Positions 634-17,190 of a stretch of 64,000 nt of DNA are shown one piece after another (the first letter of the stretch is position 1; every line of letters starts with the position of its first letter). The stretch spans positions 17,654-81,653 of the forward strand of contig DASXRG010000136.1 in assembly GCA_036506735.1 (NCBI GenBank). Direction: 5' to 3'. The translations under genes were made by a program, and so were the position numbers. The stretch is from Candidatus Binatia bacterium. GTDB lineage: Bacteria > Desulfobacterota > Binatia > UBA9968. The notes under the pieces are model-generated. The model did no database searches, was not told the origin of the DNA, and saw only the letters and a list, made by a program, of their open reading frames with translations.

Positions 634-1737
634 GTGGCGGTGATGCTCTTTATCCTCCCATTTTTATTCTCCTTGAGCGCAACCCAAGCTCTGCTTGCCG
701 CTGAAACCGAGGCCTGGAAGACCGAGTGGTCGAGGACGGTCGACAGCGCCAAGAAGGAAGCCCAGCTCACGGCGTACGGCGGCGCGGAGATCAGCCACCC
801 GGATATCATCGCCGCGTTCAACAAAGAGTTCCCCGAGATCAAGGTCGCGGCGGTCACGGGACGGGCGCCGGACCTGACCGCGCGCATTCTGGCCGAGAGA
901 CGCGCCGAGAAATATTTGGCCGACATTATAGCGAGCGGGCCCAATGCTCCCCGCACGCTGTATCTCGCCAAGGCACTCGACCCGATTGCGACCGCGTTGA
1001 TCCTGCCGGAGGTCACGGACCAGACCAAATGGTACGGCGGCCGGCATTGGTACGCGGATCCGGAGAACAAGCATATCCTGCTCTTCGAAGGCTCCGTCTC
1101 GACGACGGGCGTTGCCGTCAATACCAAGCTGATGAGCCCGAACGAGATCGCATCTTACTGGGACCTCGTGCAGCCGAGATGGAAGGGAAAACTCCTGATG
1201 ATGGATCCGCGCGGCGCGGCGCTGCCCACGCCGGTGTTGATGCTCTACTATGACCCTGACGTGGGGCCGGAGTTTTTGCGCACGCTCCTCGGCAAAATGG
1301 ATATCACGCTCTTCCGCGACCGGAGCCAGGGAACTAACTGGCTCGGCACGGGAAAATTTCCCGTCTGCTTCTATTGCCGCGATCTCGATCTCGCGCAGAA
1401 GCAAGGACTCCCGATCGCCGAGGTGCCGCCGGCGCAGATGAAGGAAGGATCGACGATCGGCGGCGGCAGCAGCAGCGTGCTCGCGCTGATCAACCGCGCG
1501 CCTCACCCCAACGCGGCGCGCGTTTTCATCAACTGGTATCTATCGCGCCAGGGGCAGATGGTTTGGCAGAAGGTGATGAACGTTAAAGAGGTCGAGCCGT
1601 CGGACTCGATGCGGATCGATATTCCCAAGGATGATGTCCTGCCGGAAGCGCGGCGCGGCGAAGGGCGGAGGTATCGCGTCGTCGGCTTTCTCGATCCGGT
1701 TCCGCTGCAGCAGCTCCTGAAAGAAGTTCTGAAATAG
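634..1737 (+). CDS. Periplasmic ABC-transporter SBP, Fe3+/thiamine/spermidine-type (cluster D), paralog 1
   Basis: N-terminal hydrophobic signal-like segment. Motifs shared by all five paralogs: KEFPEIKV...LxxRIxAERRAxKYLADxxxGG and C-terminal APHPNAARVFINWYLSRQGQ. GTG start at 634, alternative ATG at 643. Confidence 0.8.
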   Translation: MAVMLFILPFLFSLSATQALLAAETEAWKTEWSRTVDSAKKEAQLTAYGGAEISHPDIIAAFNKEFPEIKVAAVTGRAPDLTARILAERRAEKYLADIIASGPNAPRTLYLAKALDPIATALILPEVTDQTKWYGGRHWYADPENKHILLFEGSVSTTGVAVNTKLMSPNEIASYWDLVQPRWKGKLLMMDPRGAALPTPVLMLYYDPDVGPEFLRTLLGKMDITLFRDRSQGTNWLGTGKFPVCFYCRDLDLAQKQGLPIAEVPPAQMKEGSTIGGGSSSVLALINRAPHPNAARVFINWYLSRQGQMVWQKVMNVKEVEPSDSMRIDIPKDDVLPEARRGEGRRYRVVGFLDPVPLQQLLKEVLK

Positions 1738-1747
1738 GAGGAATAAG

Positions 1748-2704
1748 ATGGCGCAGGGTGAAAATTACGATCCCGTCGAGATTCGCGGTTTCTTCCGCTC
1801 TCATACCCACCTGCCGATCTGGGAAATCATCGAGCAGGCCGGTATCTGGAAGCAGGTCGGCCTGAAAGTCAGCTTCGAGTTCTGCGACAGCTCCAATATA
1901 GCGGAAGCCGCGCTGTTCGACGGCAGCATCGATTTCGTCTCGGGAAATCATATTACTCCGTATGCGTTGGTCGCGCGCGGGAAGCCGATCGTGTGTCTGG
2001 CCTCCCCTTCCAACAGCGTGAACGACAAGCTGCTGTCCCGCGAGCCCGTAACTTCCGTTGCCGAGCTCCGCGGCAAGCGCATCGCCGATACAACCCTGCT
2101 CGACCCGGCGGGCGGCTACCACCACCTGCGCGGCAATCACATGCTCTACGTGATGCGCGGCGGCCTTGGCCTGGAAGACGTTCGCTGGGTCGAGCTCACC
2201 GACTCGATGGCGGTGTTTCGCACCGCGCAATTGGAGGCGCTCAAGTCCGGCACAGCGGATGCCACGTTCGTCACCGGCGGCACGGAGAAGTACACGCAGG
2301 CTGGATTCCACGTGCTCGATCTCGAGCCGCTGCCGATGATCACCGGCCCGACGCTCACGAGCACACTGGCGAACCTCAAACGGAAAGACCGGCTCGGCGA
2401 GCGGCTGGTCAAGGCCCTGGTCTTAGGTGTGCACTTCGCGCGCACGCGGCGCGAGGAGACCGAGCGCATTCTCGAAGGATTGAAGCGGAGAGAGCCACAG
2501 GCCGGCCGGGTGAGCTACAACAGCGTGGCGAAGCTGCAGCCGAAGCCCTACCCCGATCTCGGCGGCGTGGCCAATGCCTATACGCTTTGCTGTCTCAAGG
2601 ATCCGGCGGCGAAGGAGTTGAGCCCGGCCGCGCTTTGGGACGTCCATCATCTGCGCGAGCTGGATGATTCGGGGTTCATCGATCGGCTTTACAAACAGGC
2701 GTGA
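1748..2704 (+). CDS. NMT1/THI5-like (SsuA-fold) protein without signal peptide, cytoplasmic, paralog 1
   Basis: 318 aa, starts MAQGENYDPVEIRGFFRSHTHLP with no hydrophobic leader. SsuA/NMT1-like core (GKPIVCLASPSNSVNDKL, LRGKRIADTT). Conserved His cluster (SHTH, GNH, HHLRGNH) and LCC dyad. Start is 10 nt after the upstream SBP stop. Confidence 0.8.
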   Translation: MAQGENYDPVEIRGFFRSHTHLPIWEIIEQAGIWKQVGLKVSFEFCDSSNIAEAALFDGSIDFVSGNHITPYALVARGKPIVCLASPSNSVNDKLLSREPVTSVAELRGKRIADTTLLDPAGGYHHLRGNHMLYVMRGGLGLEDVRWVELTDSMAVFRTAQLEALKSGTADATFVTGGTEKYTQAGFHVLDLEPLPMITGPTLTSTLANLKRKDRLGERLVKALVLGVHFARTRREETERILEGLKRREPQAGRVSYNSVAKLQPKPYPDLGGVANAYTLCCLKDPAAKELSPAALWDVHHLRELDDSGFIDRLYKQA

Positions 2705-2742
2705 GGCTTGAGGCGCGAGGCGTGAGCGAAAGAGGGAACCTT

Positions 2743-3864
2743 ATGAAGCATAGGATGGCGCTGGCGATAACCATCGTCTTTGCTCTGTCGTTGTCGGGAG
2801 CCGAGGCGGCGGAGATGAAGCCCGACGCGAAGGCTGCGTGGGAGAAAACTCTCGCGGGCGCTAAAAAGGAGGGCGAGGTGAGAATCTGGGGCGACATGGA
2901 GATCACCCACCAAGATATCGTCGCCGCCTTCACGAAAGAAATTCCCTTCATCAAAGCGGTGTCGGTGAGCGGCAAGGTCGGCGACTTGATGCCGCGCATT
3001 ATCGCCGAGCGCCGCGGCGGCAAATATTTGGCCGACGTTTACAGCGGCGGCCTCGGCGGCCGCGCCTTTTACGATTTTCAGCGCGCCGGGGTGCTCGATC
3101 CGCTGAAGCCGCAGCTCGTGCTTCCCGACGTCGTCGACGAATCGAAATGGCTGAACGGCAAACATTACTACGCCGACGCGGAGGGGCAGTACGTTTTCAT
3201 GTACGAAGGCAGCGTCGCCGGCGTCGGACTTTATTACAACAGCAAGCTGTTCGACCCGAAGGAGTTTCACTCCTACTGGGATCTGCTCAATCCGAAGTGG
3301 AAGGGAAAAATCGTTTTGTTCGAACGGCCGGGGACCGGCTCGCCGAACATGGTGCGTTATTACTATAACCCGCAGCTCGGGCCGGAGTTCGTGCGGCGGC
3401 TCTGGAGCGAAATGGACCTCGTCGTTTCTCAAGAGCGGCGCCAGGCGACCGATTGGCTCGGCACGGGAAAATTCGTTCTGTGTCTCGATTGCGCCGACAC
3501 CGACGCGGCGCGCAAGCAAGGCGTCCCGGTCGGCGAGTTCGATCACGCCAATTTGAAGGAAGCCGGCAGCGATATCGGCACGAGCGGCAACAGCGGTCTC
3601 GCGCTGATCAACAAAGCACCGAACCCGAACGCGGCGCGCGTTTTGATCAACTGGTTTCTCTCGCGCCAGGGACAAACCGTTTTTCAGGACGTCATGAACA
3701 ACAAAGTCGTCGAGCCTTCGGACTCGATGCGGATAGATATTCCTAAAAACAACGTTCTCCCTCCCTCTCGGCGCGAAGAAGGGAAAAAATACGTCGTCAC
3801 CGGGTTTCAGGACCCCGACCCGGTGGCGAAGCTGATCAACGAAATCCGGTCTAAAAATAAGTAA
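2743..3864 (+). CDS. Periplasmic ABC-transporter SBP, Fe3+/thiamine-type, paralog 2
   Basis: MKHRMALAITIVFALSLSGAEAAE signal peptide; AGAGGG RBS before ATG 2743. Full-length similarity to SBP1 (KEIPFIKAVSVSGKVGDLMPRIIAERRGGKYLADVYSGG; APNPNAARVLINWFLSRQGQ). Confidence 0.8.
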   Translation: MKHRMALAITIVFALSLSGAEAAEMKPDAKAAWEKTLAGAKKEGEVRIWGDMEITHQDIVAAFTKEIPFIKAVSVSGKVGDLMPRIIAERRGGKYLADVYSGGLGGRAFYDFQRAGVLDPLKPQLVLPDVVDESKWLNGKHYYADAEGQYVFMYEGSVAGVGLYYNSKLFDPKEFHSYWDLLNPKWKGKIVLFERPGTGSPNMVRYYYNPQLGPEFVRRLWSEMDLVVSQERRQATDWLGTGKFVLCLDCADTDAARKQGVPVGEFDHANLKEAGSDIGTSGNSGLALINKAPNPNAARVLINWFLSRQGQTVFQDVMNNKVVEPSDSMRIDIPKNNVLPPSRREEGKKYVVTGFQDPDPVAKLINEIRSKNK

Positions 3865-3874
3865 AGGAGATTTC

Positions 3875-4819
3875 ATGTCGGACTACCAGCCGATCGAGAT
3901 CAAGGGCTTCTACAGATCACATACTCATCTACCGGTTTGGGAAGTAATCGAAAAGGCGGGGATCTGGAAACAACTGGAAATCAAAGCGAGCTTCGAGTAT
4001 TGCGATAGCTCGAGCGTGGCCGAAGCGGCGTTGTTTGACGGCGACGTCGATTTCGTCTCGGGAAATCACATCAGCCCGTATGGCCTGGTGGCCGAAGGCA
4101 AGCCGATCGTGTCGCTCGCCTCGCCGTCGAACAGCGTCAACGACAAGCTCATTGCGCGCGCGCCGATAAAATCCGTCGGCGAGCTGAGAGGAAAACGGCT
4201 GGCCGACACGACCGTGACGGACAAAGGCGGGGGCTACAACCATATCCGCGGCAACCACATGCTCTACGTGCTGAAGGCTGGGTTAAAATTGGATGAGGTC
4301 AAATGGGTGGAGATCGCGGACATCATGTCGGAAAGTTTTCGCGCAGCACAGCTCGAAGCGGTGCGGGAAGGCAAAGCGGACGCCGCGATGGTCACGGGCG
4401 GCGCGGAGAAGTTTCAGCAGGATGGGTTTCACGTTCTGGAACTGGGCCGGATGCCGATGGTCAACGGCCCGACGCTCACGTCCACTCTGACGAATCTCAA
4501 ACGCAAGGACCGCCTCGCCGAACGGCTGGTGAAGGGCCTCGTTCTCGGCATCCATTGGGCGCGGTCGAATCCGGATGAGACCGAGCGCGTCCTCGGCGCA
4601 TTGCGCCAATGTACGCCCGAGTCCAATGCGACTTACAACAGCGTCGCGAAGCTTCTGCCCAAGCCCTACCCCGACCATCAGGCGATTGCCAACGCTTACG
4701 AGCTGTGCTGCATGAAAGATCCCAAGGCAAAGGAGTTGAGCCCGGTCGCGCTCTGGGACCTGCACTATTTGCGCGAGCTGGACGATTCCGGCTTCATCGA
4801 CCGGCTGTATGGCGCGTAA
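3875..4819 (+). CDS. NMT1/THI5-like protein without signal peptide, paralog 2
   Basis: 314 aa, alignable end-to-end with 1748-2704 (MSDYQPIEIKGFYRSHTHLPVWEVIEKAGIWKQ...YELCCMKDPKAKELSP...LRELDDSGFIDRLY). AGGAG RBS. Starts 10 nt after the SBP2 stop. Confidence 0.8.
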   Translation: MSDYQPIEIKGFYRSHTHLPVWEVIEKAGIWKQLEIKASFEYCDSSSVAEAALFDGDVDFVSGNHISPYGLVAEGKPIVSLASPSNSVNDKLIARAPIKSVGELRGKRLADTTVTDKGGGYNHIRGNHMLYVLKAGLKLDEVKWVEIADIMSESFRAAQLEAVREGKADAAMVTGGAEKFQQDGFHVLELGRMPMVNGPTLTSTLTNLKRKDRLAERLVKGLVLGIHWARSNPDETERVLGALRQCTPESNATYNSVAKLLPKPYPDHQAIANAYELCCMKDPKAKELSPVALWDLHYLRELDDSGFIDRLYGA

Positions 4820-4867
4820 AATTGGCGTCCTCGTAAAGACGTTTAGCTGATAGAGAGGAGAACGAAG

Positions 4868-5554
4868 ATGGAAGAAAAAGTGATCACGATGGCCGACAAG
4901 GTTCAGATATTCGATGTCGATGAGGCGCTGAAAAAAGGCGATCAATTGGTCGGCCGCACCGATATGGCTAGGTCGCCGAACAGTTTTGTCGCAGTTTTCC
5001 GGACGCGGCCGCGCGGCGGCGAAACCCACATTCACCAGCATCCCGACTCCGATCAGATCCTCTTCGTTCTAAGGAGCGAATTGACCGTCGAAGGACTGTC
5101 GGAAAAATATGTGTTGAAACCGAATCAAGGCGTCCTGATACCGGCCGGCGTTCATTACGGCTTCACCAACACGACCGATAAGGATTTGATCTTTTTGTCG
5201 ATGCGCACGGAGTCGAGCGGAGGCCGCAGGGTCGCGTACGTGAAAAATGTCCCTTCGAATGTTCACCTCAAGATTCCGGCCGACGCGCTCGCGGCTCGGG
5301 GAATCGGCCACCATATTTACGTGTACGCCATGGACCGCGATACGTTCGGCTTGTCGCCTCTCCTGTTCGAGGATTGGAATAAGGGCTCTCTTTTACGCAT
5401 GAACTGCGAATACGAGATGGATGACGGTCACGTTGTCGCCAAGCTGCCTGAGCGGCTGGTCCAGTGGTACAAGATCGACAGGCTGTCGGACTCGAATTAC
5501 AAATTTATCACGGAGCCGGAAAAGACGCGGGTTCGCGTGGAGCTAAAACGCTGA
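4868..5554 (+). CDS. Cupin-domain protein
   Basis: HIHQHPDSDQILFVLRSELTVEGLSEKYVLKPNQGVLIPAGVHYGF is a classic cupin_2 two-His/Glu motif region. GAGAGGAG RBS. Confidence 0.7.
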   Translation: MEEKVITMADKVQIFDVDEALKKGDQLVGRTDMARSPNSFVAVFRTRPRGGETHIHQHPDSDQILFVLRSELTVEGLSEKYVLKPNQGVLIPAGVHYGFTNTTDKDLIFLSMRTESSGGRRVAYVKNVPSNVHLKIPADALAARGIGHHIYVYAMDRDTFGLSPLLFEDWNKGSLLRMNCEYEMDDGHVVAKLPERLVQWYKIDRLSDSNYKFITEPEKTRVRVELKR

Positions 5555-5559
5555 GGAAA

Positions 5560-5625
5560 AACGTAAGGCGTGAAAGGTAAGGCGTGAAGCGTCCGCCTCA
5601 CCCCTTACCCCTTACCCCTTACGGA
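5560..5625. repeat. GC-rich imperfect inverted-repeat / stem-loop element (GTAAGG x2 ... CCCCTTA x3) between the cupin gene and SBP3
   Basis: Left arm ggtaaggcgtgaagcg pairs with right arm cgcctcaccccttacc (14/16). Flanking direct repeats gtaaggcgtgaa x2 and cccctta x3. No U-tract follows, so this is a possible transcription attenuator or REP-like element. Confidence 0.35.
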
Positions 5626-5645
5626 TACGGGGTGGAGCCAGAAAG

Positions 5646-6692
5646 ATGAAAAGTCGTCGATTCTTTCAGGTAACGATCACGTGCTTGCTCCTTCTTCCCG
5701 CCCTCGTCTTCGCCCAGGGGCTGGACAGGATTGTCGAAGGAGCCAAGAAAGAAGGGAAAGCAAAGATCGGGCTCACGGTTCGATGGCAGGAAGGGGGCAA
5801 GCCCGGCGCAAAGAAGATTGTCGAGCTCTTTCAGTCGCGCTATCCTTTCGTCAAGATCGAATATGAGCGCGTCGGCGGGTCGCGCGAGCGGGAGCGGGTT
5901 CTTTCCGAGCTGGCGGCGGGACAGGTCTCTTACGACGTGACGGTTTTGAGCGAGACGCAGGTGCCGATCGCACTCAAAGCGAACGTCATCGAGAAGATCG
6001 ACTGGCGCGCTCTCGGCGTCGTGCCGCAGCACGTCCATGATAACGACGTCGGCATCAACTATCGCTCTCAGCTTTACGGCATCGCTTACAATCGCAAGCT
6101 CGTTCCCGATTCCGTCGGCGCGAAGCTCAACTGGGACGACTGCGCCTCGGCTCAGTATCGCGGCAAGATCGCGATCGACAGCCGGCCGCGTCACCTGGAG
6201 ATATTTTGGCAGCCGCAGGTGTGGGGACGCGAGAGAACTCTAGCGCACGCGCGGCGCCTGGCTGACAACGCCACAAAATTCGAGCAGGACCGTACCGCGG
6301 CGATAACCAAGCTCGCGCTCGGCGAGTACGCCATCGTTTGCGGCTCCTTTTATTCGACCTATTATGAAGCGGTCCGTTCGGGCGAGAATAGCCAACTCGC
6401 TTTCCGTGTCGCTGAGCCCGTTCCCATGAGCCTCGGCGACGTGGTTTTCGTGCCGCGCGGCGTGCCGCACCCGAACGCGGCCCGACTCTGGGTGGCCTGG
6501 TCTATTTCGGAAGAGGGACAGAAGGTTCTCGACGAGGTGGAGGGAAGCGGCAGCCCCCTCTTCCCAACCACCCAGGCGGCCAGGATGATCAAAGGGAAAA
6601 AGGTCGCATGGTATGAGCCGCAATGGAGAGCCAAGGCGGATGAGATTTTGAAAGAAGTTCTCGAAGCCGTGGGTCTCCCCGTCGTGCGGTGA
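5646..6692 (+). CDS. Periplasmic ABC-transporter SBP, Fe3+/thiamine-type, paralog 3
   Basis: Signal peptide MKSRRFFQVTITCLLLLPALVFAQG. VPHPNAARLWVAWSISEEGQ motif. GGAG RBS. Stop overlaps the permease start (ATGA). Confidence 0.8.
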   Translation: MKSRRFFQVTITCLLLLPALVFAQGLDRIVEGAKKEGKAKIGLTVRWQEGGKPGAKKIVELFQSRYPFVKIEYERVGGSRERERVLSELAAGQVSYDVTVLSETQVPIALKANVIEKIDWRALGVVPQHVHDNDVGINYRSQLYGIAYNRKLVPDSVGAKLNWDDCASAQYRGKIAIDSRPRHLEIFWQPQVWGRERTLAHARRLADNATKFEQDRTAAITKLALGEYAIVCGSFYSTYYEAVRSGENSQLAFRVAEPVPMSLGDVVFVPRGVPHPNAARLWVAWSISEEGQKVLDEVEGSGSPLFPTTQAARMIKGKKVAWYEPQWRAKADEILKEVLEAVGLPVVR

Positions 6693-8419
6693 GCATGCGG
6701 CTAAGACTTCCGAGCGCCACGACGCTCTTCTTGGCTTGCGTCGTCCTGATTCTGCTCTGGCTCATCGTCATCCCTCTCGGACAGATGGTTCTGAACAGTT
6801 TCCGCACGGGCCATCCCGCCGCGCCCGGTCCGTTCACTTTGAAAAACTACCTGGTCGCTTACACCAGCCCGTTAACCTACCGAATGATTTTCAACACGCT
6901 CGTGTTTGCCGTCGGCGGCACGGCGATCACGACCGTCATCGCGATCTTTTTCGCCTGGCTCCTGGAACGAACCGACATGCCGCTGCAAAATCTTTGCTGG
7001 AGTCTTTTGCTGATCCCGCTGGCCATGCCCGGGCTGCTCTTTTCCATGGCGTACGTTTTTCTGCTTTTGCCCAAGAGCGGTCTATTGAACGTCTTTCTGC
7101 GCGATGCGTTGTCCCACCTCGGCGTCGAGCTTTCCGAGGGGCCGATCAATATCTACTCTCTCGGCGGCATGATCTTTCTTGACGGACTGCGCGGCGTCAC
7201 GACGGTATTTCTCATGATCGTCGGCGCGTTTCGCATCATGGATCCGGCGATGGAGGAAGCCTCCTTCGCCGCGGGCGCAAAGAATTGGATGACGTTAAAG
7301 AAAGTGACCCTGCCGGTTTTGCGCCCTGCTCTTCTGGCGGCGGTGCTCTATGAGTTTGCCTCTTCCATGGAGTCTTTCGAAGCTCCCTTGGTGCTCGGTC
7401 TTCCCGGCCGAGTCTACGTTTACAGCACGATGATTTACATCTCCACGCGCGACGCCATCCCTAACTATGGTTTGGGGGCGGCGTTTGCGGCGAGCTACTT
7501 TGTCCTCTCGCTCGGACTCGTTTACCTTTATCAACGGGCCACGGTCCGGCAGTCGGAGCGCTTCGCCACCGTCACCGGCAGGGGATACCGGCCGCACAGG
7601 ATAAGGCTCGGCCGCTGGCGCTATCCGGCGCTCGCGCTTTTCATTTTGTATTTTCTGTTCGCCGTCGCGCTTCCTCTTGGAGTGCTGGTCTGGACTTCGC
7701 TGCTCCCCTCTTACCAGCCGCCGTCGCGCGCGGCTCTGACGCGGCTTCACTGGGGAAATTACCAAATGATCTTCGCCGACCCCGCCATCCTCAGGGCGAT
7801 CTGGAACACTTTGATCATGACCTTCGGCGCCGCCACGGCGACCGTCGCTCTTGCTTTCGGCGTCTCGTGGCTGGTCGTTCGGGCCCGCGTTAGAGGCTCC
7901 ATGGCTCTGGACGGACTCACCTTCGCGTCGCACGCCATTCCCGGCGTGGTGATCGCGCTTTCGTTTATATTCTTATACCTGCAGCCGCCGATGCGCTCGC
8001 TGGGCCTTTACGGAACCGTGTGGGTCGTCGTCCTGGCGCTCGTAACGCAATACGTTTCGTTCGCCTCCAGAGCCACCAACGCGGCGGTCATGCAGGTTCA
8101 CACGGAGCTCGAGGAGGCGGGCGAAGTGAGTGGAGCAAGCCGGCTGCGCATCCTCTGGCAGATCACTTTCCCCTTGATCCGCCCCGCTTTTATCGCCGCA
8201 TGGATCTGGGTTGCGGCTCACGCGGTCCGCGCCTTTTCGGTCCCGCTGATGCTCGCGGGCCGCGACAGCCGCCCGCTCGCAGTCATGCTCTGGCATCTGT
8301 GGGATGAAGAGCAAAATCTGCCGGCCGCCGCCGCGCTGGGAGTCCTGTTGATTCTGGCCTTGACGCTTCTGACCTTTTCCGGCAGGGCGATCGTCACCCG
8401 GGGCTTCGCATCCTCGTAA
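6689..8419 (+). CDS. Fused two-domain ABC-transporter permease (FbpB/ThiP-like, ~12 TM)
   Basis: 576 aa with two repeated permease halves, many hydrophobic helices and EAA-like loops (e.g. ...GAKNWMTLKKVTLPVLRPALLAAV..., ...ASRLRILWQITFPLIRPAFIAA...). Translationally coupled to SBP3. Confidence 0.85.
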   Translation: MSMRLRLPSATTLFLACVVLILLWLIVIPLGQMVLNSFRTGHPAAPGPFTLKNYLVAYTSPLTYRMIFNTLVFAVGGTAITTVIAIFFAWLLERTDMPLQNLCWSLLLIPLAMPGLLFSMAYVFLLLPKSGLLNVFLRDALSHLGVELSEGPINIYSLGGMIFLDGLRGVTTVFLMIVGAFRIMDPAMEEASFAAGAKNWMTLKKVTLPVLRPALLAAVLYEFASSMESFEAPLVLGLPGRVYVYSTMIYISTRDAIPNYGLGAAFAASYFVLSLGLVYLYQRATVRQSERFATVTGRGYRPHRIRLGRWRYPALALFILYFLFAVALPLGVLVWTSLLPSYQPPSRAALTRLHWGNYQMIFADPAILRAIWNTLIMTFGAATATVALAFGVSWLVVRARVRGSMALDGLTFASHAIPGVVIALSFIFLYLQPPMRSLGLYGTVWVVVLALVTQYVSFASRATNAAVMQVHTELEEAGEVSGASRLRILWQITFPLIRPAFIAAWIWVAAHAVRAFSVPLMLAGRDSRPLAVMLWHLWDEEQNLPAAAALGVLLILALTLLTFSGRAIVTRGFASS

Positions 8420-8432
8420 AGGGGCTTAGGGC

Positions 8433-9575
8433 ATGCTTGATTCTGCGAGGCGAAATCGTCGCACGGCGTGGAGAGCTGCGACTCTTGTCCTGCTGCTTTT
8501 AGGTTTTGTCGATAGCGGCTCGGCGCAGACAGACTGGAAAGCGGAATGGAACAAGACGCTGGCTGCGGCTAAAAAAGAAGGACGCCTTAATCTCTATGTC
8601 GGCCGGTATGGTCAGGCCCCGCTGCTCGCCGAGTTCGCCAAAGAGTTTCCAGAAATCAAACTGGTCACGGTCAATGGAACGGGAAACCAATTAGGGACAA
8701 GAATCTTGGCCGAGGTCAGGTCAAGCAAAGTCATAGCGGATCTCTATAGCGGCGGCGCCAACTCGAGTCATACCCTGCTCTATCGGGGCAAAGTTCTCGA
8801 CGCCTTTCCGACCACGCTGATTCTTCCCGAGGTCGTCGATGAATCCAAGTGGTATTCGGGTAAGCACGTTTACACGGACGTGGAGGGGAAGTATATTTTC
8901 GTTTACATAGCCAATCCGGGCGGCGGGAGCATCTCCTACAACACCGATCTTGTGAATCCTAAGGAGTTCAGGTCGTACTGGGATCTTCTCCAGCTCAAAT
9001 GGAAAGGGAAGATCGGTTCCCAGCCGCTCACGGAAACCGGCCTGGGCGCGACGCTTCAGTTTTTCTTTTATCACCCGGAGATCGGCCCGGAATGGATCAG
9101 GCGAATTTACGGGACGATGCACGTCACGTTCGGCGATCGGCGTCTCATCGTGGATTGGCTGGCTAAAGGAAAACTCGCCCTTTGCGTAGGGTGCAGAGAG
9201 GTGGAGCGCGCTAAAGCGCAAGGACTTCCGGTAGCTCGATTCGATGACGGCACGTGGAAAGAAGGACAGGGTCTAAGCACCGGCGGCGGCTCGATGAGCC
9301 TTATCAAGGGCGCCCCTCATCCAAATGCGGCGAAGGTCTTTATCAACTGGTTTCTCTCCCGCCAGGGACAGATCGCGCTGCAAAGCTCCAACGACCTCTA
9401 TGGCGAGCCCCCGCCCAACTCCCGCAGGATCGATATCCCAAAAGATATGCTCGCGCCGGACGATAGGCTGGTAGAGGGGAGGAAATATGTAGATGTCTCC
9501 CGCAGCGAATATGCCGACATGACGCCGATCTTTAAACTGGCGAAGGATATCATGAAAACCATCGAACAGAAGTAG
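8433..9575 (+). CDS. Periplasmic ABC-transporter SBP, Fe3+/thiamine-type, paralog 4
   Basis: Signal peptide ...TLVLLLLGFVDSGSAQT. KEFPEIKLVTVNGTGNQLGTRILAEVRSSKVIADLYSGG and APHPNAAKVFINWFLSRQGQ motifs. Confidence 0.8.
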   Translation: MLDSARRNRRTAWRAATLVLLLLGFVDSGSAQTDWKAEWNKTLAAAKKEGRLNLYVGRYGQAPLLAEFAKEFPEIKLVTVNGTGNQLGTRILAEVRSSKVIADLYSGGANSSHTLLYRGKVLDAFPTTLILPEVVDESKWYSGKHVYTDVEGKYIFVYIANPGGGSISYNTDLVNPKEFRSYWDLLQLKWKGKIGSQPLTETGLGATLQFFFYHPEIGPEWIRRIYGTMHVTFGDRRLIVDWLAKGKLALCVGCREVERAKAQGLPVARFDDGTWKEGQGLSTGGGSMSLIKGAPHPNAAKVFINWFLSRQGQIALQSSNDLYGEPPPNSRRIDIPKDMLAPDDRLVEGRKYVDVSRSEYADMTPIFKLAKDIMKTIEQK

Positions 9576-9586
9576 CGAGGGACTCG

Positions 9587-10753
9587 GTGAGTAGCGCGTT
9601 GCGAATGTTCGGTATCCTTGGATTTTTCATCTTGGGATTTTTCTTCCATTCGTTGCCGCTCTCAGCCGCGGAAACCAAGCCCGCCTGGCAGGCCGAATGG
9701 GAGAAAGCCGTGCGAGCGGCCGAGCAGGAGGGCCAAGTCGTCGTTTACATCGCCGGCTATGAGGCGGTGATCGCCGCGGGAATTTTTCAGAAGGCATATC
9801 CAAAAATCCGCGTCGTGACCGTGAGCGGATCCGGCACGCAGCTCGCGCCGCGCATCGCCTCGGAGAGAAGAGCGGGCAAGTACCTGGCCGACGTTTACAA
9901 CGGCGGCGGCAACTCGCTGCACCAGATTCTCTATCTCGGCAAGATGCTCGATCCGATCAAGCGCGCGCTGATCCTCCCCGAAGTTCTGGACGAGTCGAAA
10001 TGGTGGGAAGGAAAACACAAGTATGTCGATCCCGAGAGCATGTATGTCTTCGTCTACGAGGGCAACGTCTCGAGCGGCGGCGGCCTGAGCTACAACACCA
10101 AGCTCCTTAACGCGAAGGACTACAGGTCCTTCTGGGATTTCCTCGATCCCAAATTGAAGGGAAAGATCGTCGCCGCAGACCTGAGACAAGTGAGAGGCGC
10201 GGGACTATCGTGGCAGTATCTCTACTACCACCCGCAGCTCGGGCCGGCCTACATCAAGCGCCTTTACGGCGAAATGGACGTGACCATGTCGGCGGATTTG
10301 CGCCAAGCGGTAGACTGGATGGCGATGGGGAAAGTGGTTCTCTGCATTCCTTGTCAAGGCTCGGGCGTAGCGCGGGCGCGAAATCAGGGACTTCCCGTCG
10401 ATCAGTTCGAGCCGTTTCATTTCAAGGAAGGAGTGTCGATCTCTTCGGCCTTCGGCCAACTGGCGTTGCTGAACCGAGCGCCGCATCCGAACGCGGCCAA
10501 GGTATTCATCAATTGGCTCCTCTCGCGCGACGGCCAGAGCGCGTTTCAGAAAATCATGAGCGAGCCCGGCGACCCGCGCGACTCGCGCCGGGTCGACGTG
10601 CCCAAGGACCACATCCCGCCCGGCGAGCGGCGGAGAGACGGGATGCGCTACTTCGACACCGACGATCCCGAGACCAAGGACATAACACCCATCACAAAGC
10701 TTCTCGACGAGCTCCTGGCCAAGAAAAAGCCAGCAGACGGCAGCGCGCCTTAA
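9587..10753 (+). CDS. Periplasmic ABC-transporter SBP, Fe3+/thiamine-type, paralog 5
   Basis: GTG start with GAGGG RBS. Hydrophobic leader ILGFFILGFFFHSLPLSAAE. APRIASERRAGKYLADVYNGG and APHPNAAKVFINWLLSRDGQ motifs. Confidence 0.8.
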   Translation: MSSALRMFGILGFFILGFFFHSLPLSAAETKPAWQAEWEKAVRAAEQEGQVVVYIAGYEAVIAAGIFQKAYPKIRVVTVSGSGTQLAPRIASERRAGKYLADVYNGGGNSLHQILYLGKMLDPIKRALILPEVLDESKWWEGKHKYVDPESMYVFVYEGNVSSGGGLSYNTKLLNAKDYRSFWDFLDPKLKGKIVAADLRQVRGAGLSWQYLYYHPQLGPAYIKRLYGEMDVTMSADLRQAVDWMAMGKVVLCIPCQGSGVARARNQGLPVDQFEPFHFKEGVSISSAFGQLALLNRAPHPNAAKVFINWLLSRDGQSAFQKIMSEPGDPRDSRRVDVPKDHIPPGERRRDGMRYFDTDDPETKDITPITKLLDELLAKKKPADGSAP

Positions 10754-10981: not shown

Positions 10982-13114
10982 GTGAAGACCAAACTCGATC
11001 TTCCTTCGAACTTGTTTAGCTATAAACCGACCCAACTCGCCAGCGGCATGCTGGACCGGGTGCGCAAGAAAGGCGTCGGCGCGATCGCGCCCGAGAAGGG
11101 CCTTTCACAAAAAGGCCTTTCTCAAGCCGTCGCCCAAAGCGCTCTAAAGATCCAGCAGCAACTCAGCGTCAAGGCGAACACCGACAACCGCGTCCAGTCG
11201 CGCGTCGAGAGCCAAACGGCGCGGTCGGCGGTGCAGGACGGCCAAACCGTCAAGGTCTTAACCAAGCAGGCGATTCAAGGGGAAACCAATCAGCAGCAGC
11301 GGTCGGAAGTCTCGCAGCGCTCCCAGCAGGTGGTCCAGGGCCAAACCAACGGCAAGCCGGTCTACAAAAATGTGGAGCGGGAGGTTTTTCAGATCAACGT
11401 CGGAAACAGGGAAGCGGAGTTCAAGGAAGTGCGCGTCAACCACGACAGCTCGACGCGGAACGTCGTGCAGAAGGCCAACGCCACGCGCGTGAGCCTCAGC
11501 ACTGACAGTTCCAGCACCCGAAACCGTAGCGATACGGTCGCCGCTCAGAACCGAACCGAGACCGAGACCTACGTCAGAACCTACGACTCTTTGGGCAATT
11601 TGGTGAGCGAGAAGGCGAGCCGGCAAGCCGTTACGACGACGCAGCAGCAGCAATCGGCCGTGAAGGCGCAGGCGGAGGCGAGCCGGCAAGTCGCGCAGCA
11701 GACCACCGTCGAGGCGAGCCAGGAAGGTAAGAAATCCGTCCGCGCGGGCACGACCGAAACGACCGACACTTCCAAGGGTCATCAACAAATCGAAACTCAA
11801 ATCCAATCGAAGACCGCCACGTTGGTGGAAAACCTCGGCGCCGACGGAGAGGTTCTTTCCGCCAAGGCCAGCGCGCAGCAGGTGACGACGACCGAGGCGA
11901 GAACGATCGACACGAGCCGCGCGAGCCACACCGAGCAAACCAACCTGACGCGCACCGGCCCGGATCAATTGGAAACCACAAGCCATACCCAATACGATAC
12001 CAGAGCCAGGACCGTGGATCAGATCAAAACCGAAGGCGACACGCAGCAATTCGACGACAAGGGCGCGCTGGTGCGCGAGCAGGCCTTCGAGCGACAGGTC
12101 ACCACGACCAGCACCGAGAACCGAAACGGCGAATCGCAGACGCGCGCGGCGACCAGCAAAGAAAAGAACGGCGACACCGTGGCGGAAACCGACATTACGT
12201 CAAGCGAATCGGTCGCCGCCGCAACGAGAGTCGTGTCCGAACAGGGCGGCGCGAAAACCGAAAGGGTGATCGAGAGCCAACTCCACACCGAACTGCGCGC
12301 CGACTTGGCGAACCGAATGGAGGCCGACGGGCAGAGGACGATCTCGTTCGACACGCAGCAGACCCGCACGGCACAAACCGCCGATCTGACCGCGGGCACG
12401 AATGGCCAGGGCCGCCTCGTCGAGAGCGAAACGAAGATCGCCCAACTAGCCCGCGGCCAAATCGAATATTCGCCCGAGACGCAGCAAGTCGGCGTCCACG
12501 CCGGAGCGGGCGCGATCATCGTCGACATTAGAAGCGCCGCCGGACTGCGCGCCAGCTTTAAACTCGATGAAGGACAGCTTGAATTCGACTTTTCGGCCGA
12601 GACTGCGACGGTCTCTCATCAGGAAGTCACGACCGGGAAAGTGATCCAGGGAAACGACGGCGCATCGACCGTGACGGGCTCATCCACCGACTCGCAGCGT
12701 GCTTCTGTCGAGACCGTTCACTTTCACGGCCACGTCAACGCGTCCGTCGATGCCGCAGGCAACCGGGTGTTGGAGCTCGACGGAGAACTCACTCAGGATT
12801 CAGCCGCCGTTCTCGTAGCCAACCAGCAGCAGGGAATCCAGGCCGAGCGAAGCTACACAGAGCTGGATGTCTTCGGGCGGCTGGCGGTCAATCGCCAGGT
12901 CTCCACGAACGGTTCCGCAACCGAGTTTCAGACTCAGGCTGAAGCCGAGCTGACAGTGGCTCGCGTCGAGAAGCGCGAAGACGCCGCGGTCGGCATGGCG
13001 AGCCTCAGTCGCTTGACCACGGCCGATGCCGTGCGCGCGGGTTTCCAAGCCTATCGCAGCACGATTCAACTTCACGTCGGCGGCTTCGATCTCGGCATCA
13101 GCTTCGTAGCTTAG
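10982..13114 (+). CDS. Gln/Thr/Ser-rich low-complexity protein (710 aa), unknown function, likely largely disordered
   Basis: No Cys and few hydrophobic residues. Internal ~70-90-aa repeats with motif G.LVSEKAS.Q.VTTT (three times). C-terminal ~170 aa less biased (…IQLHVGGFDLGISFVA). AAGGA RBS, GTG start. Preceded by a 228-bp lower-GC leader. Confidence 0.6.
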   Translation: MKTKLDLPSNLFSYKPTQLASGMLDRVRKKGVGAIAPEKGLSQKGLSQAVAQSALKIQQQLSVKANTDNRVQSRVESQTARSAVQDGQTVKVLTKQAIQGETNQQQRSEVSQRSQQVVQGQTNGKPVYKNVEREVFQINVGNREAEFKEVRVNHDSSTRNVVQKANATRVSLSTDSSSTRNRSDTVAAQNRTETETYVRTYDSLGNLVSEKASRQAVTTTQQQQSAVKAQAEASRQVAQQTTVEASQEGKKSVRAGTTETTDTSKGHQQIETQIQSKTATLVENLGADGEVLSAKASAQQVTTTEARTIDTSRASHTEQTNLTRTGPDQLETTSHTQYDTRARTVDQIKTEGDTQQFDDKGALVREQAFERQVTTTSTENRNGESQTRAATSKEKNGDTVAETDITSSESVAAATRVVSEQGGAKTERVIESQLHTELRADLANRMEADGQRTISFDTQQTRTAQTADLTAGTNGQGRLVESETKIAQLARGQIEYSPETQQVGVHAGAGAIIVDIRSAAGLRASFKLDEGQLEFDFSAETATVSHQEVTTGKVIQGNDGASTVTGSSTDSQRASVETVHFHGHVNASVDAAGNRVLELDGELTQDSAAVLVANQQQGIQAERSYTELDVFGRLAVNRQVSTNGSATEFQTQAEAELTVARVEKREDAAVGMASLSRLTTADAVRAGFQAYRSTIQLHVGGFDLGISFVA

Positions 13115-14033: not shown

Positions 14034-15011
14034 TCACTGGTCACGCAAAACTTTTTCCAACGGCCCGTTTTCCCGGAACGGCTCCGGCCATCCCAGATAT
14101 TCTTTGAACTCGGGACGTTTTCCGATCAAGTCTTTCACCACGTTGTCGATCCCCTTGTCCGGCACCCGAGGCGCCCGCTTGAAAAGCGGCGCGTACACGG
14201 CCACCGACCGTTTGACGATCCCGAGATCTTTTTCCCGCAGCCATTTGGCAAACGACTTTTCCGCCAACGCGCGATCCTTTCGGATCAAATGAATCGCCGC
14301 GACGTAGGCCCGGAGAAAGTCCTCGGTGAGCTTCGGCTCCGCTTTGATAAACGCGCGGCTGCTGGTCACGCAGGATGAAGGATAAATCAAATCCGTTTTG
14401 CTGAGATCGACGAGCACCGGCCAGCCGCGATCCAAAAAAGATATCGCGTAGCGGGTCGTCAGGGCGGCTGCGGCGATGCGCCCCGCTTCCAACGCCGCGA
14501 CCATTTCCGGCCCGGCGCCCAACTGCAGGACCGTCACGTCCCGCTCGGGATCGAGGCCGGCGTGCTTCAGCGCCGCGCGGAGATAGAAATGCGTGCTCGA
14601 ACCGTAGCGCGTCACGCCGCTCGCCAGGCCCTTGAGCTCCGCCGGCGACTTGATTTCGGGACGCGCGATCAGGTAGACGGGGTCGGTGTCGATGGGACAG
14701 GCGAGCAAAACCACGTCGCCTCCCGCCACCCGCGCCGCCACCACCGATTCCGCGCCGACGCCGGAAAACGGCAGATCGCCGGTGATGATGACCAGCGCAA
14801 TCAATGAGCCGCCGCGAATCTGCACCGGCTCGACTTCCAAGCCATGCCGGGCAAAAAGGCCGGCGTCTTTCGCCACCCAGACGGGAAGATGCGCGGGCGA
14901 GGCGGTCGTTCCGTAGTAGATGCGTCTCAGCTCCTGCGCCGGGGTTGGCCGGCCAACCAGGAGCAACGCCGCGCAGATGGCGAGCTGAATTTTAAATTTG
15001 AAGCCGGTCAT
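14034..15011 (-). CDS. NMT1/SsuA-like periplasmic SBP (nitrate/sulfonate/bicarbonate family), orphan
   Basis: Signal peptide MTGFKFKIQLAICAALLLVGRPTPAQ. SsuA-like core (GGSLIALVIITGDLPFSG..., VVLLACPIDTDPVYLIARPEIKSPAELKG). Confidence 0.75.
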   Translation of the reverse strand: MTGFKFKIQLAICAALLLVGRPTPAQELRRIYYGTTASPAHLPVWVAKDAGLFARHGLEVEPVQIRGGSLIALVIITGDLPFSGVGAESVVAARVAGGDVVLLACPIDTDPVYLIARPEIKSPAELKGLASGVTRYGSSTHFYLRAALKHAGLDPERDVTVLQLGAGPEMVAALEAGRIAAAALTTRYAISFLDRGWPVLVDLSKTDLIYPSSCVTSSRAFIKAEPKLTEDFLRAYVAAIHLIRKDRALAEKSFAKWLREKDLGIVKRSVAVYAPLFKRAPRVPDKGIDNVVKDLIGKRPEFKEYLGWPEPFRENGPLEKVLRDQ

Positions 15012-16197: not shown

Positions 16198-17190
16198 TCA
16201 CTCGACCTTGTAGCCCAGCTCCTTGGCGATTTCGATCGCGAATCTGGGCTCGGCGACGTCTTGAAACGATACGGTCTTGGCGGAGGGTTTGAGCTGCGAC
16301 TGGACCATTTTGATGATGTTGTTCATGCCTTCTTCCGTCGGAATGCCGGTGTCATTGAAGTTGCTTTGCACCAGGCTATAGGTTTCCGCGGCGGTTTCCC
16401 GATCCATATTGAGGACGCGCACGATCAGATCGATAGTTTTTTCTTTCGCCTTGAGCATCTCTCTTTTGGCGAGCTGCAGCGCGCGAATCAGTCTCTTGAC
16501 CTCGTCGGGACGGTTTTTGATCGTTCGAAGCATCGCGGTCAGTCCGCCCGACGGCATCTCGACCAGCGCGCCGACGTCGAGCAGTTTACGAAAACCCTGC
16601 CGCTGGGCGAAAAACATATAAGGAGGATTCAGGGACGCGGCGTCGAGAAACTTCGATTCCAACGAGGAGACGAGCTGCATCGGCGGCACGGACATGATGA
16701 TGAAATCTTTGGCGTTGAATCCCTGCTTCTCCAGCGCGAACGTCAACGCGACGTGGCTGGTGCCGCCGAGACCGCTTACGCCGATGCGCTTTTGTTTGAG
16801 ATCGTGAACGGTTTTAAATTCCGGCCGCGCCATCAGCCAATAGGCGATCCGGTTGGTCGACGACCACACGGCGCGGGAGTCGAGGCCGCTCAGGCTCGCC
16901 CCGACCGTCGCCGGCCCGATGCCCGATTGGTAGTCGAGATCTCCCGAGACCAGCGCGGCGGCCGCGGCCGACGAGCGCATGAGGATGATCTCGACTTCGA
17001 GCCCCTGGCCGGCGAAAAATTTCCAGTCGCGCGCCGCGATCAGCGGCAGCGCGGTGAAGCTGAAGTTGGCATTGGAGATTCTAATCCTGCGCCGCTCTTG
17101 CGAGCCGGCGCTCGCAGCGTGGAGCAAAAAGAAAACCAGCAGGCACGCGGCGGACAACCGGCGGAGCGAGCTTTCGAGTCGCATCGTCAA
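16198..17190 (-). CDS. NMT1/SsuA-like periplasmic SBP, orphan
   Basis: Signal peptide LLVFFLLHAASAGSQ. SsuA-like motifs (VSGDLDYQSGIG; KQKRIGVSGLGGTSHVAL). 4-nt overlap with the upstream SBP gene. Confidence 0.75.
   Translation of the reverse strand: MTMRLESSLRRLSAACLLVFFLLHAASAGSQERRRIRISNANFSFTALPLIAARDWKFFAGQGLEVEIILMRSSAAAAALVSGDLDYQSGIGPATVGASLSGLDSRAVWSSTNRIAYWLMARPEFKTVHDLKQKRIGVSGLGGTSHVALTFALEKQGFNAKDFIIMSVPPMQLVSSLESKFLDAASLNPPYMFFAQRQGFRKLLDVGALVEMPSGGLTAMLRTIKNRPDEVKRLIRALQLAKREMLKAKEKTIDLIVRVLNMDRETAAETYSLVQSNFNDTGIPTEEGMNNIIKMVQSQLKPSAKTVSFQDVAEPRFAIEIAKELGYKVE

Follow-up and report, generated by a model that had tools for sequence, protein, structure and literature searches.

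What does a protein with the fold of a periplasmic binder, but no export signal, do when it is encoded directly behind a genuine periplasmic solute-binding protein (SBP), and why does such a pair of genes occur twice in succession? Enzymes have arisen from binding-protein folds on few occasions, the known cases being THI5, DszB, thiaminase I, MqnA/MqnD and OphC, and each of them is informative on how catalysis arises from binding. The locus described here lies in a genome of the Binatia, a lineage of abundant, uncultured soil bacteria about whose substrates little is known. The initial annotation had read it as a tandem cassette that couples capture of a ligand in the periplasm to a cytoplasmic enzyme resembling THI5 or DszB. 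We refer to the signal-less proteins as N1 and N2, to their relatives as the N family, and to the entire 64,000 nucleotides analysed as the window.

The duplicated cassette and the surrounding array

The cassette belongs to a same-strand array with short intergenic gaps, between whose genes we found no convincing terminator on the + strand:

634..1737 (alternative start 643), + strand: SBP1, a predicted periplasmic SBP of the FbpA/PhnS class (cluster D), from the clade found upstream of N
1748..2704, + strand: N1, a signal-less protein of the NMT1/SsuA fold, 'GYHHLRGN' subtype
2743..3864 (alternative start 2755), + strand: SBP2, a paralogue of SBP1 (49% identity) from the same upstream-of-N clade
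3875..4819, + strand: N2, a paralogue of N1 (69% identity), 'GYNHIRGN' subtype
4868..5554, + strand: a monocupin of 228 aa (Pfam Cupin_2, 42 bits)
5646..6692, + strand: SBP3, a distinct SBP_bac_1 binder whose N-terminus, MKSRRFFQV, resembles a twin-arginine signal
6689..8419, + strand: an FbpB/PhnU2-type ABC permease with two fused domains; the SBP3 stop overlaps its start
8433..9575, + strand: SBP4, a paralogue of SBP1 and SBP2 (41% identical to SBP1)
9587..10753, + strand: SBP5, a further such paralogue (43% identical to SBP1) and the final gene of the array

The head-to-tail duplication first noticed here is real. All four open reading frames are present on the + strand, the gap between SBP and N is 10 nt in both copies, each with a GGAGG/AGGAG ribosome-binding site, and both pairs of paralogues are co-linear (E 2e-172 for N1 against N2, E 6e-132 for SBP1 against SBP2). 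In the public record of this contig, gene callers place the start codons of SBP1 and SBP2 at 643 and 2755. The cassette is best explained as a conserved module of two genes, a dedicated SBP gene and then an N gene, that was duplicated in tandem long ago. Across nine tandem loci, 23 positions set the first-copy N apart from the second-copy N, including T70S, H125N, L127I and T199N, all of which adjoin invariant residues. Were N an enzyme, as considered below, N1 and N2 would share the same chemistry and act on two related substrates.

The monocupin, which has no signal peptide, carries the metal-binding motifs HIHQH...D and PAGVHYGFTN, and no close relative of solved structure was found for it; it is the only enzyme next to the cassette in this window, with no adjoining Rieske oxygenase or Gfo dehydrogenase. 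The gene order N - cupin - SBP3 recurs in five further loci (L014, L015, L020, L025 and L028), with the permease next where the contig continues, and the succession cupin - SBP3 - permease is typical downstream of the GYNHIRGN subtype to which N2 belongs. The permease has two Pfam BPD_transp_1 domains and scores 160 bits against NCBIfam PhnU2, which is under the cut-off. We found no ATPase gene after it within the window, whose sole ATPase (28894-29694) lies about 20 kb off and adjoins an NMT1-like ORF (26940-27992); in the related loci L056, L076 and L103 the gene after the permease encodes an ATPase that has a TOBE_2 domain. The window also encodes nine ordinary NMT1-like paralogues, all on the strand opposite to the cassette, and signal peptides are present in all seven of those whose N-termini were read.

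A signal-less family with a distinctive set of residues

The two-lobed alpha/beta fold of the NMT1/SsuA/THI5 superfamily is recognizable in the N proteins by several lines of comparison. N1 and N2 score 21.3 and 29.8 bits against Pfam NMT1 (PF09084; cut-off 20.5 bits), the N family profile matches TauA and SsuA with E 1e-9 and 3qsl with E 3e-10, and the hhalign probability against THI5 is 97%; the structure model is of moderate quality (pLDDT 76). The SBPs of the cassette have N-terminal signal peptides, whereas N1 and N2 have none and begin with hydrophilic residues. The initial annotation had described them as signal-less, and a search for a missed signal peptide agrees with it: because in-frame stops lie 5 codons before the N1 ATG and 13 codons before that of N2, no signal peptide can be fitted to either. 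Moreover, all 39 aligned family members start within about 12 residues of strand 1, with no N-terminal extension. These observations support the prediction that N is a cytoplasmic protein built on the NMT1/SsuA binding-protein fold.

Comparison with the periplasmic sister clade of NMT1/SsuA-type SBPs, which share the fold but, where their N-termini were read, have signal peptides, brings out several nearly invariant polar positions. R17 is found in 38/39 cytoplasmic members (S/A/P in the periplasmic sisters), H68 likewise in 38/39 (G in the sisters), H126 in 35/39 (A/S/R in the sisters) and T202 in 36/39, again not in the sisters; Tyr72 is kept in 35/39, and G66 is near-invariant across the signal-less family, N1 reading G66-N67-H68. 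To judge from the topology and from the alignment with TauA and SsuA loops, the invariant residues would sit in those loops that border the ligand cleft of proteins with this fold. The C-terminal motif KPYP...WD...LD.SGFID is common to N and the periplasmic sisters.

The initial annotation had drawn attention to conserved polar residues, in particular a cluster of histidines and a Cys-Cys dyad, and the motifs concerned (RSHTHLP, SGNH, HxRGNHMLYV and LCC) are indeed present in N1 and N2. The clade-specific polar residues predicted in the cleft bear out the general claim. Within the histidine cluster, H68 and H126 are near-invariant family-wide, but H19, H21 and H131 are kept in the close clade only. 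The Cys-Cys dyad, too, is confined to the close clade and fails as a hallmark: LCC spans residues 280-282, and in the wider family a Cys stands at 281 in 4/39 members and at 282 in 11/39.

N belongs to a hitherto uncharacterised offshoot of periplasmic NMT1/SsuA-type binders. It descends from such binders, has since lost the export signal and has gained the near-invariant Arg17 / Gly66-His68 / His126 / Thr202 set. The loss of export together with the gain of an invariant Arg/His/His, relative to periplasmic sisters of the same genomes, constitutes the signature of the family. All of its members come from metagenomes; they number about 1,000 hits, which bear generic names only and are annotated everywhere as transporter SBPs. 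The subtypes HHPR, NHIR, HHLR and NHLR, named for the residues flanking H126, each have a characteristic gene context of their own, so the subtypes track the neighbouring genes.

Association with one SBP clade and with catabolic operons

If the two genes form a functional pair, their association should recur, a test that the initial annotation had proposed. We surveyed 77 loci from species-representative genomes. Among 141 SBPs, 50 form a single clade, and the SBPs directly upstream of N fall within it in 42 of 43 cases; close N homologues have an SBP of the clade upstream in 39 of the 48 cases that could be scored. Pairwise identities of N correlate with those of its SBP (r 0.76), and in the reverse test, with loci seeded from SBP1 homologues, N lies directly downstream in 4/4. 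The pairing is not due to chance, and these sequence comparisons show N to be co-inherited with one SBP clade. We found no published description of either the N family or the SBP-N pairing, in agreement with the earlier suggestion that this is not a described system.

The partner SBPs had been assigned to the Fe3+/thiamine (FbpA/ThiB) type. Profile match, fold, signal peptide and the fused FbpB-like permease in the operon all place SBP1 and SBP2 in the FbpA/PhnS class, cluster D; the stretches best conserved across these SBPs, at about residues 122-152 and 315-333, have low confidence in the model. The idea of one SBP feeding one enzyme proved too simple, since most loci have one N amid many SBPs, and N of the HHPR subtype also occurs in SBP-less operons with the order Gfo - Rieske - aldolase_II - N, seen in 8-10 Binatia genomes.

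The conserved neighbours across genomes are phthalate-family Rieske oxygenases, cupins and bicupins, UbiD decarboxylases and Gfo/Idh/MocA dehydrogenases, accompanied on the transport side by an FbpB-type permease and a TOBE-type ATPase. Recurrent orders include S-N-S-Rieske-bicupin(-permease-ATPase) and Rieske-Gfo-Rieske-S-N-S, where S denotes an SBP. Up to a dozen SBP paralogues may stand in one operon, interleaved with decarboxylases and dehydrogenases; presumably the many SBPs of an operon share one fused permease and one TOBE-type ATPase. More distant N clades sit among genes for UbiD, cupin, Rieske, Amidohydro_2, HpaB, GST and hydrolase proteins. The best explanation of these contexts is that the SBP-N module belongs to operons for uptake plus catabolism, mostly in Binatia. 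Nothing in them points to the thiamine-pyrimidine or organosulfur substrate once suggested for the cassette; the neighbours are catabolic genes and the FbpB-type permease with its TOBE-type ATPase.

Possible functions of the N family

By analogy with the phthalate-pathway decarboxylase OphC, N could be a cytoplasmic SBP-fold enzyme, the reading that we favour and to which we give nearly even chances. The protein would bind an anionic compound, probably of the aromatic-acid type, either imported or made by a neighbouring oxygenase, and would convert it with no need for an organic cofactor; the Arg would hold the anion and a His would serve as proton donor. Most likely, an acid group would be removed or rearranged in a lyase-type reaction. 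Within the same superfamily, OphC/Pht5 and the desulfinase DszB carry out such reactions. From the earlier proposal of an enzyme rather than a transporter component, the predicted cytoplasmic location and the clade-specific polar cleft residues survive, and the enzymatic activity itself is what we infer. Several points count against it: conserved polar cleft residues are equally expected of a specific binding protein, N stands between permease and ATPase in one distant relative, where one would look for a transporter subunit, N keeps neither the catalytic residues of THI5 nor H60 and R70 of DszB and resembles OphC at the superfamily level only, and the cassette of this window adjoins only a cupin.

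Some of the same points favour the main rival, a non-catalytic cytoplasmic ligand-binding protein, acting either as a sensor of an internal metabolite that tunes the importer, in the manner of NrtC/CmpC, or as a carrier that receives the imported compound from the transporter and passes it to the Rieske or cupin enzymes; we regard this as doubtful, though it deserves serious consideration. The regulatory role of such domains is documented for the NrtBCD/CmpABCD importers (PMC10945777, PMC13287603). In L085-L088 an N of 40% identity lies in an operon of the order SBP - permease - N - ATPase - bicupin, and both the single N amid many SBPs, which would fit a shared transporter component, and the co-inheritance of the N-SBP module speak in its favour. 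However, the C-terminal regulatory domain of NrtC/CmpC, from cyanobacterial nitrate/bicarbonate ABC importers, is fused to the ATPase, whereas N is free-standing; among the multi-domain relatives examined there was no fusion of N to an ATPase, such fusions being seen only in periplasmic relatives. The NrtC/CmpC domain is also homologous to its own periplasmic SBP, unlike N, whose partner comes from another structural cluster (FbpA/PhnS, not NMT1). Furthermore, the SBP-less operons with N of the HHPR subtype have no adjoining transporter gene, and the more distant N clades sit among enzymes only. The cleft set stays invariant over 24-60% identity despite changing partners and contexts, which fits a shared chemistry better than sensing that has diverged.

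Considerably less probable is a role in metal handling, with N taking up iron or a metal chelate from the FbpABC-like importer and supplying it to the Rieske and cupin enzymes. Here H68, H126 and Y72 would bind the metal, and a synergistic anion would be held by R17 and T202, on the model of transferrin and FbpA. The two histidines and Tyr72 together with the Arg and Thr do resemble a metal-plus-anion site, and both recurrent enzyme partners, Rieske oxygenases and cupins, require mononuclear iron. Against this, the many paralogous SBPs that share an operon with decarboxylases and dehydrogenases argue for diverse organic ligands and not for a single metal, the same structural class of SBP also binds 2-aminoethylphosphonate, sugar phosphates and polyamines, and the neighbourhood showed no genes for iron regulation or siderophores. 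It is hardly credible that N is an ordinary periplasmic SBP exported without a signal of its own, for instance together with its partner, or that the adjacency is a by-product of SBP density, even though annotation pipelines label N an 'ABC transporter substrate-binding protein' and SBP genes crowd Binatia loci. The stop codons exclude a signal peptide in N1 and N2, the whole N clade is without one, and no NitT/TauT-type permease or ATPase adjoins N, the only permease of the array being of the FbpB/PhnU2 type. Co-export is further opposed by the Sec-type signals of SBP1 and SBP2, as Sec does not carry folded partner proteins, and chance adjacency is unable to explain the clade-specific upstream SBPs or the reverse test.

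A bolder form of the enzyme reading, which we consider rather unlikely, is that N is the founding member of a new enzyme class on the binding-protein fold, with Arg/His/His as its active site, and forms with its dedicated SBP a unit for 'capture and process'. On the outer side of the membrane the SBP would select the compound, which would enter through a shared ABC translocator; N would then carry out the committed first cytoplasmic step, perhaps while docked on the importer for direct transfer of the substrate. If this were true, duplication of the SBP-N pair would be the way in which these bacteria add new substrates. Quite apart from that scenario, N is tied to a dedicated clade of SBPs, and its operons, mostly in Binatia, bring numerous SBPs together with catabolic genes. 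Knowing its ligand would show whether N serves an ABC importer as enzyme, sensor or hand-over protein. It would also put right the widespread annotation of N as a transporter SBP and provide a handle on what the large SBP arrays import.

Relationship to known binding-protein-fold enzymes

Enzymes of the Venus-flytrap fold have been reviewed (PMC9672406). The sequences of THI5 and DszB used for comparison were checked against PDB 4h6d and 2de2, respectively. In the hhalign alignment with the HMP-P synthase THI5/NMT1, the PLP-lysine K62 corresponds to the invariant G66 of N and the substrate histidine H66 to T70; PMITGPT is the stretch of N aligned with the CCCFC motif. The LCC of N belongs to another helix, near the C-terminus, and N loci show no thiamine context. 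In the 2'-hydroxybiphenyl-2-sulfinate desulfinase DszB, the catalytic H60 and R70 are part of an insertion peculiar to DszB, to which nothing in N corresponds, and the nucleophile C27, just outside the alignment, extrapolates to position 19 of N, which is variable and has no common Cys; no dsz-type context is seen at N loci. Of the two enzymes that the initial annotation had invoked, N lacks K62, H66 and the CCCFC motif of THI5, and H60 and R70 of DszB.

The parallel drawn above is with OphC/Pht5, the 4,5-dihydroxyphthalate decarboxylase of the Gram-negative phthalate pathway, a family that we take to be the decarboxylase on the basis of the oph/pht literature and of the gene cluster seen. It is not known to have a solved structure or defined catalytic residues. 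Against the N profile, OphC gives an hhalign probability of 86% (E 5e-6, 19% identity over 203 columns), a relation at the superfamily level only; it has neither the GNH nor the H126 motif of N, no motif is common to both, and, unlike N, OphC is not paired with an FbpA-class periplasmic SBP. Nevertheless, OphC is signal-less like N, has about 330 aa and the same superfamily fold, shows weak Pfam matches to NMT1 and Phosphonate-bd, and is likewise annotated as an 'ABC transporter substrate-binding protein'. Its neighbours in the oph cluster are a Rieske oxygenase of the LigXa_C type and a dehydrogenase of the Gfo/Idh/MocA family, and the same partners accompany N at many loci of the family outside this window, in the orders Gfo - Rieske - aldolase_II - N and Rieske - Gfo - Rieske - S - N.

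Organization of the SBP-N array

Nine genes on one strand (634-10753) form a single array, which combines periplasmic substrate-binding proteins (SBPs), mostly of the FbpA/PhnS class, with two NMT1/SsuA-fold proteins, N1 and N2. The family of the latter is termed N below, and residue numbers refer to it.

634/643-1737, + strand: SBP1
1748-2704, + strand: N1
2743/2755-3864, + strand: SBP2
3875-4819, + strand: N2
following N2, + strand: 228-aa cupin
5646-6692, + strand: SBP3, distinct from the other SBPs
6689-8419, + strand: FbpB-type, fused two-domain ABC permease
8433-9575, + strand: SBP4, a further paralogue
following SBP4, + strand: SBP5, likewise

Successive genes are separated by 10, 38-50, 10, 48 and 91 nt, a 4-nt overlap, and 13 and 11 nt, and a + strand search between them yielded no convincing terminator. 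Over their full length N1 and N2 share 69% identity and SBP1 and SBP2 49%; in either pair, exactly 10 nt, including a ribosome-binding site, separate the SBP gene from the N gene behind it. The ORFs, identities and spacing thus confirm the head-to-tail duplicated cassette described in the initial annotation. A signal peptide is present at the N-terminus of all five array SBPs and absent from N1 and N2, where in-frame stops 5 and 13 codons before the respective starts rule out an overlooked one, in agreement with the earlier description of both as signal-less. The N-terminus of SBP3 (MKSRRFFQV) is twin-arginine-like and SBP4 has RR pairs within its N-region, while the signals of SBP1, SBP2 and SBP5 look Sec-type.

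No ATPase gene adjoins the permease. The sole ABC ATPase of the window (28894-29694) lies beside an NMT1-like ORF about 20 kb away, and the array may depend on an ATPase encoded elsewhere. Right behind the array is a 710-aa ORF (10982-13114, + strand; also in L005, the identical public contig of a Candidatus Binatia metagenome-assembled genome) with no Pfam match, whose product is Q/T/S/E-rich and repetitive-looking and whose DNA is very strongly AT-skewed (up to 0.49). Directly upstream, and divergent, is a class I SAM-dependent O-methyltransferase gene (275-541 region, - strand; L005 8140-8775) of the Methyltransf_3, caffeoyl-CoA O-methyltransferase-like type; a connection with methoxylated aromatic substrates is speculative.

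Conservation of the pairing and of the tandem duplication

We surveyed 77 loci from species-representative genomes, mostly of Binatia, with a few MAGs labelled Verrucomicrobiia/Udaeobacter, Chloroflexota, Acidiferrales or Thermoleophilaceae, and scored all their ORFs with HMMs made from the window proteins. Since these loci are related by descent, the counts are to be read as conserved synteny and not as independent events: 39 close N homologues have an SBP directly upstream, 9 have none and 6 sit at a contig edge. A neighbour-joining tree built from the 141 SBPs of these loci puts 42 of the 43 located directly upstream of N into one clade of 50, the rest of which come mostly from contigs that end before N. 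Pairwise identities of N and of the upstream SBPs are correlated (r 0.76; means 0.675 and 0.626, respectively). In the reverse direction, four loci were picked from SBP1 homologues regardless of N, and N was immediately downstream in all four, one copy being frameshifted. The pairing suspected from the window alone therefore recurs in related genomes. At L101 (8417-9362) the N behind an SBP1 homologue is split across two frames and called as three short genes, reflecting either an assembly indel or a pseudogene.

The tandem arrangement S-N-S-N (S denoting an SBP) is found in nine loci, in which 23 positions, including T70S, H125N, L127I and T199N, consistently separate first-copy from second-copy N proteins; these four adjoin invariant residues of the family. 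Hence, the duplication is old and has been maintained.

The SBPs themselves carry a CxxC pair (VCFYC, SBP1 residues ~245-248) in the same columns of SBP2, SBP4, SBP5 and loci L001-L084, present in 110 of the 141 SBPs of the SBP1 family with equal counts at both columns; the pair might form a disulfide in the periplasm or bind a metal. The most conserved motif of this family, LPEV.D..KW..G.H.Y.D (residues ~122-152), falls in a segment predicted with very low confidence.

Reach of the N family and its periplasmic relatives

Pfam and NCBIfam register a weak NMT1/SsuA similarity in N. Searches of solved structures in the PDB with single sequences and close-family profiles gave no significant match, and SsuA, TauA and THI5 were reached solely with a diverse family profile. 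Among 5.8 billion proteins there are 1,101 matches to N; the best 120 of these share 67-100% identity with it and measure 279-337 aa, in almost every case 307-337, and so have no N-terminal extension fit for a signal peptide. When a profile was run against 1.84 billion cluster representatives, it recovered some 40 signal-less clusters of full length, with 24-60% identity; the relatives beyond these carry about 40 extra N-terminal residues, i.e. signal peptides. Fusions to further domains (LysM, HAMP, sCache) were encountered in periplasmic relatives only. All cluster names are generic, and every member is metagenomic and bears a generic transporter name. A degenerate-motif scan of metagenome contigs returned 9 loci, 2 of them without N.

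The window also encodes nine scattered NMT1-like ORFs:

14034-15011, - strand
16198-17190, - strand
17187-18185, - strand
21399-22418, - strand
26940-27992, - strand
38301-39263, - strand
39304-40290, - strand
45262-46290, - strand
61360-62370, - strand

A signal peptide is present in all seven N-termini read, and most of the nine ORFs lack neighbouring transporter genes. These binders, apparently orphans, have thus expanded to a large number, and they form the sister lineage of the cytoplasmic N family.

Residues that distinguish N

We aligned 39 signal-less N members with two kinds of periplasmic protein, 20 relatives that bear a signal and 7 NMT1 paralogues encoded in the window. The C-terminal motif KPYP...WD...LD.SGFID is common to both groups, identifying them as sister lineages, whereas nine other positions set them apart.

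Residues of N conserved in signal-less members, with their periplasmic counterparts
R17: signal-less 38/39; periplasmic S/A/P
G66: signal-less 38/39; periplasmic variable (V/G/A/M/I)
H68: signal-less 38/39; periplasmic mostly G
H126: signal-less 35/39; periplasmic A/S/R
P196: signal-less 34/39; periplasmic I/L/V
M197: signal-less 31/39; periplasmic P/E/A
T202: signal-less 36/39; periplasmic variable (G/T)
N276: signal-less 35/39; periplasmic mixed (A, N, others)
W297: signal-less 38/39; periplasmic mostly V

At the level of sequence, the change relative to the periplasmic relatives is a functional shift that goes beyond loss of the signal. In the predicted model strand 1 leads into R17 and strand 3 into G66-H68, and H126 opens the first helix of the second lobe; the loops bearing them align with the ligand loops of TauA/SsuA, and this topology would place all of them in the ligand cleft. 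The Cys-Cys dyad, earlier taken as an enzyme signature, does not hold up (of the signal-less members, 4/39 have Cys at position 281 and 11/39 at position 282): like H19, H21 and H131 it is conserved in the close clade only and was discarded as a family-wide catalytic feature.

Comparison with THI5, DszB and OphC/Pht5

The initial annotation had proposed an enzyme resembling THI5 or DszB. After verification of both sequences against the PDB, alignment to N placed the PLP-lysine K62 of THI5 at the invariant G66, its H66 at T70 and its CCCFC motif at PMITGPT. H60 and R70 of DszB sit within a DszB-specific insertion, and its C27 lies just beyond the alignment edge, the extrapolated register pointing to variable position 19 of N. 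N is therefore an orthologue of neither enzyme; it forms a branch of its own within the superfamily, marked by a distinct set of conserved residues. The suggested thiamine-pyrimidine or organosulfur ligand likewise finds no support in neighbouring genes or active-site residues. As the cupins of N loci have no informative relative among solved structures, the context narrows the probable substrate class no further than 'anionic/aromatic'.

A possible functional parallel is the OphC/Pht5 family, signal-less and weakly NMT1-like, which we take to be the 4,5-dihydroxyphthalate decarboxylase of the oph/pht literature. In a classic oph cluster it is encoded alongside a Rieske oxygenase of the LigXa_C type and a dehydrogenase of the Gfo/Idh/MocA family. 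RefSeq names it 'ABC transporter substrate-binding protein' at L100 (6001-6993, on the Ralstonia plasmid NZ_CP146093.1) and in some 200 further plasmid records, despite the recognisable phthalate clusters around it, which looks like systematic misannotation of an enzyme.

Operonic contexts

Gene-order strings with Pfam checks resolved the following architectures.

Architectures of N loci
Type I (window): S-N-S-N, then cupin - SBP3 - permease - S-S; tandem in nine loci
Type II: S-N-S-Rieske-bicupin(-S-Rieske); about 17 loci
Type III: Rieske-Gfo-Rieske-S-N-S (Gfo, Gfo/Idh/MocA dehydrogenase); several loci
Group B: Gfo/Idh/MocA - Rieske - class II aldolase - N, SBP-free; 8-10 Binatia genomes

Three type II loci (L056, L076, L103) end in a fused permease followed by an ATPase with a TOBE_2 domain, and a 40%-identical relative of N lies in the order SBP - permease - N - ATPase - bicupin (L085). 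More distant clades neighbour UbiD, cupin, Rieske, Amidohydro_2 and HpaB genes, besides arylmalonate-decarboxylase-like, GST, dienelactone-hydrolase and nitroreductase genes. By the four residues around H126, N can be sorted into subtypes that track gene context: HHLR, the tandem first copy (N1); NHIR, the tandem second copy (N2) and the type III N; HHPR, type II and group B; and NHLR, mostly solitary N.

Two loci are unusual. L002 (1-20960, Binatia MAG GCA_030157145.1) is a dense 20-kb same-strand island with one N and about 12 FbpA-class SBPs, between which lie Rieske oxygenase, Gfo/Idh/MocA and UbiD genes, each present twice. At L099 (1280-4878) a distant N homologue lies beside a bicupin and an EutA-like (BcrAD/BadFG ATPase superfamily) gene, a combination unique among the loci.

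Functional interpretation

N is evidently a cytoplasmic descendant of periplasmic binders, with a clade-specific invariant polar set in predicted cleft loops. It is co-inherited with one SBP clade, its subtypes track catabolic neighbours, and the same subtype occurs both with and without SBPs. The reading we favour, at slightly under an even chance, is that N is an enzyme, since 1) the cleft set is fixed over 24-60% identity while the partners vary; 2) N fills the 'enzyme slots' of SBP/enzyme arrays and persists in transporter-free operons; and 3) the superfamily has yielded acid-group-removing enzymes at least twice (DszB and OphC/Pht5). Such an enzyme would work in the cytoplasm on a compound imported by the array or made by the neighbouring oxygenase. 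By analogy, one might guess at a reaction in which Arg anchors a carboxylate-like group and His assists in removing or rearranging it.

The fold match and the position of N in the L085 operon would suit a non-catalytic cytoplasmic binder, either a regulator resembling the NrtC/CmpC domains or a hand-over carrier; we regard this as a distinctly weaker but real contender, against which stand the SBP-free operons, a partner SBP that belongs to a different class and the absence of an N-ATPase fusion. Metal handling, to which the His/His/Tyr and Arg/Thr set and the ferric-binder-like partner SBPs might point, fits poorly with the multiplicity of SBPs and seems improbable. Still less credit can be given to export without a signal of its own, opposed by the in-frame stops before N1 and N2, or to a meaningless adjacency, which is at odds with the single clade of upstream SBPs and the reverse test.

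Neither annotations nor the literature consulted (on Binatia SBPs and Rieske proteins, cytoplasmic SsuA-fold enzymes, and dihydroxyphthalate decarboxylase with SBPs) describe the N family or its pairing with an SBP, consistent with the initial annotation's view of the pairing as undescribed. Enzymes built on the SBP fold are already known, as are SBP-like regulatory domains in the cytoplasm; judged by sequence, what N adds to them is an uncharacterised branch that bears a signature of its own, and whose conserved pairing with a periplasmic SBP from another class is new.
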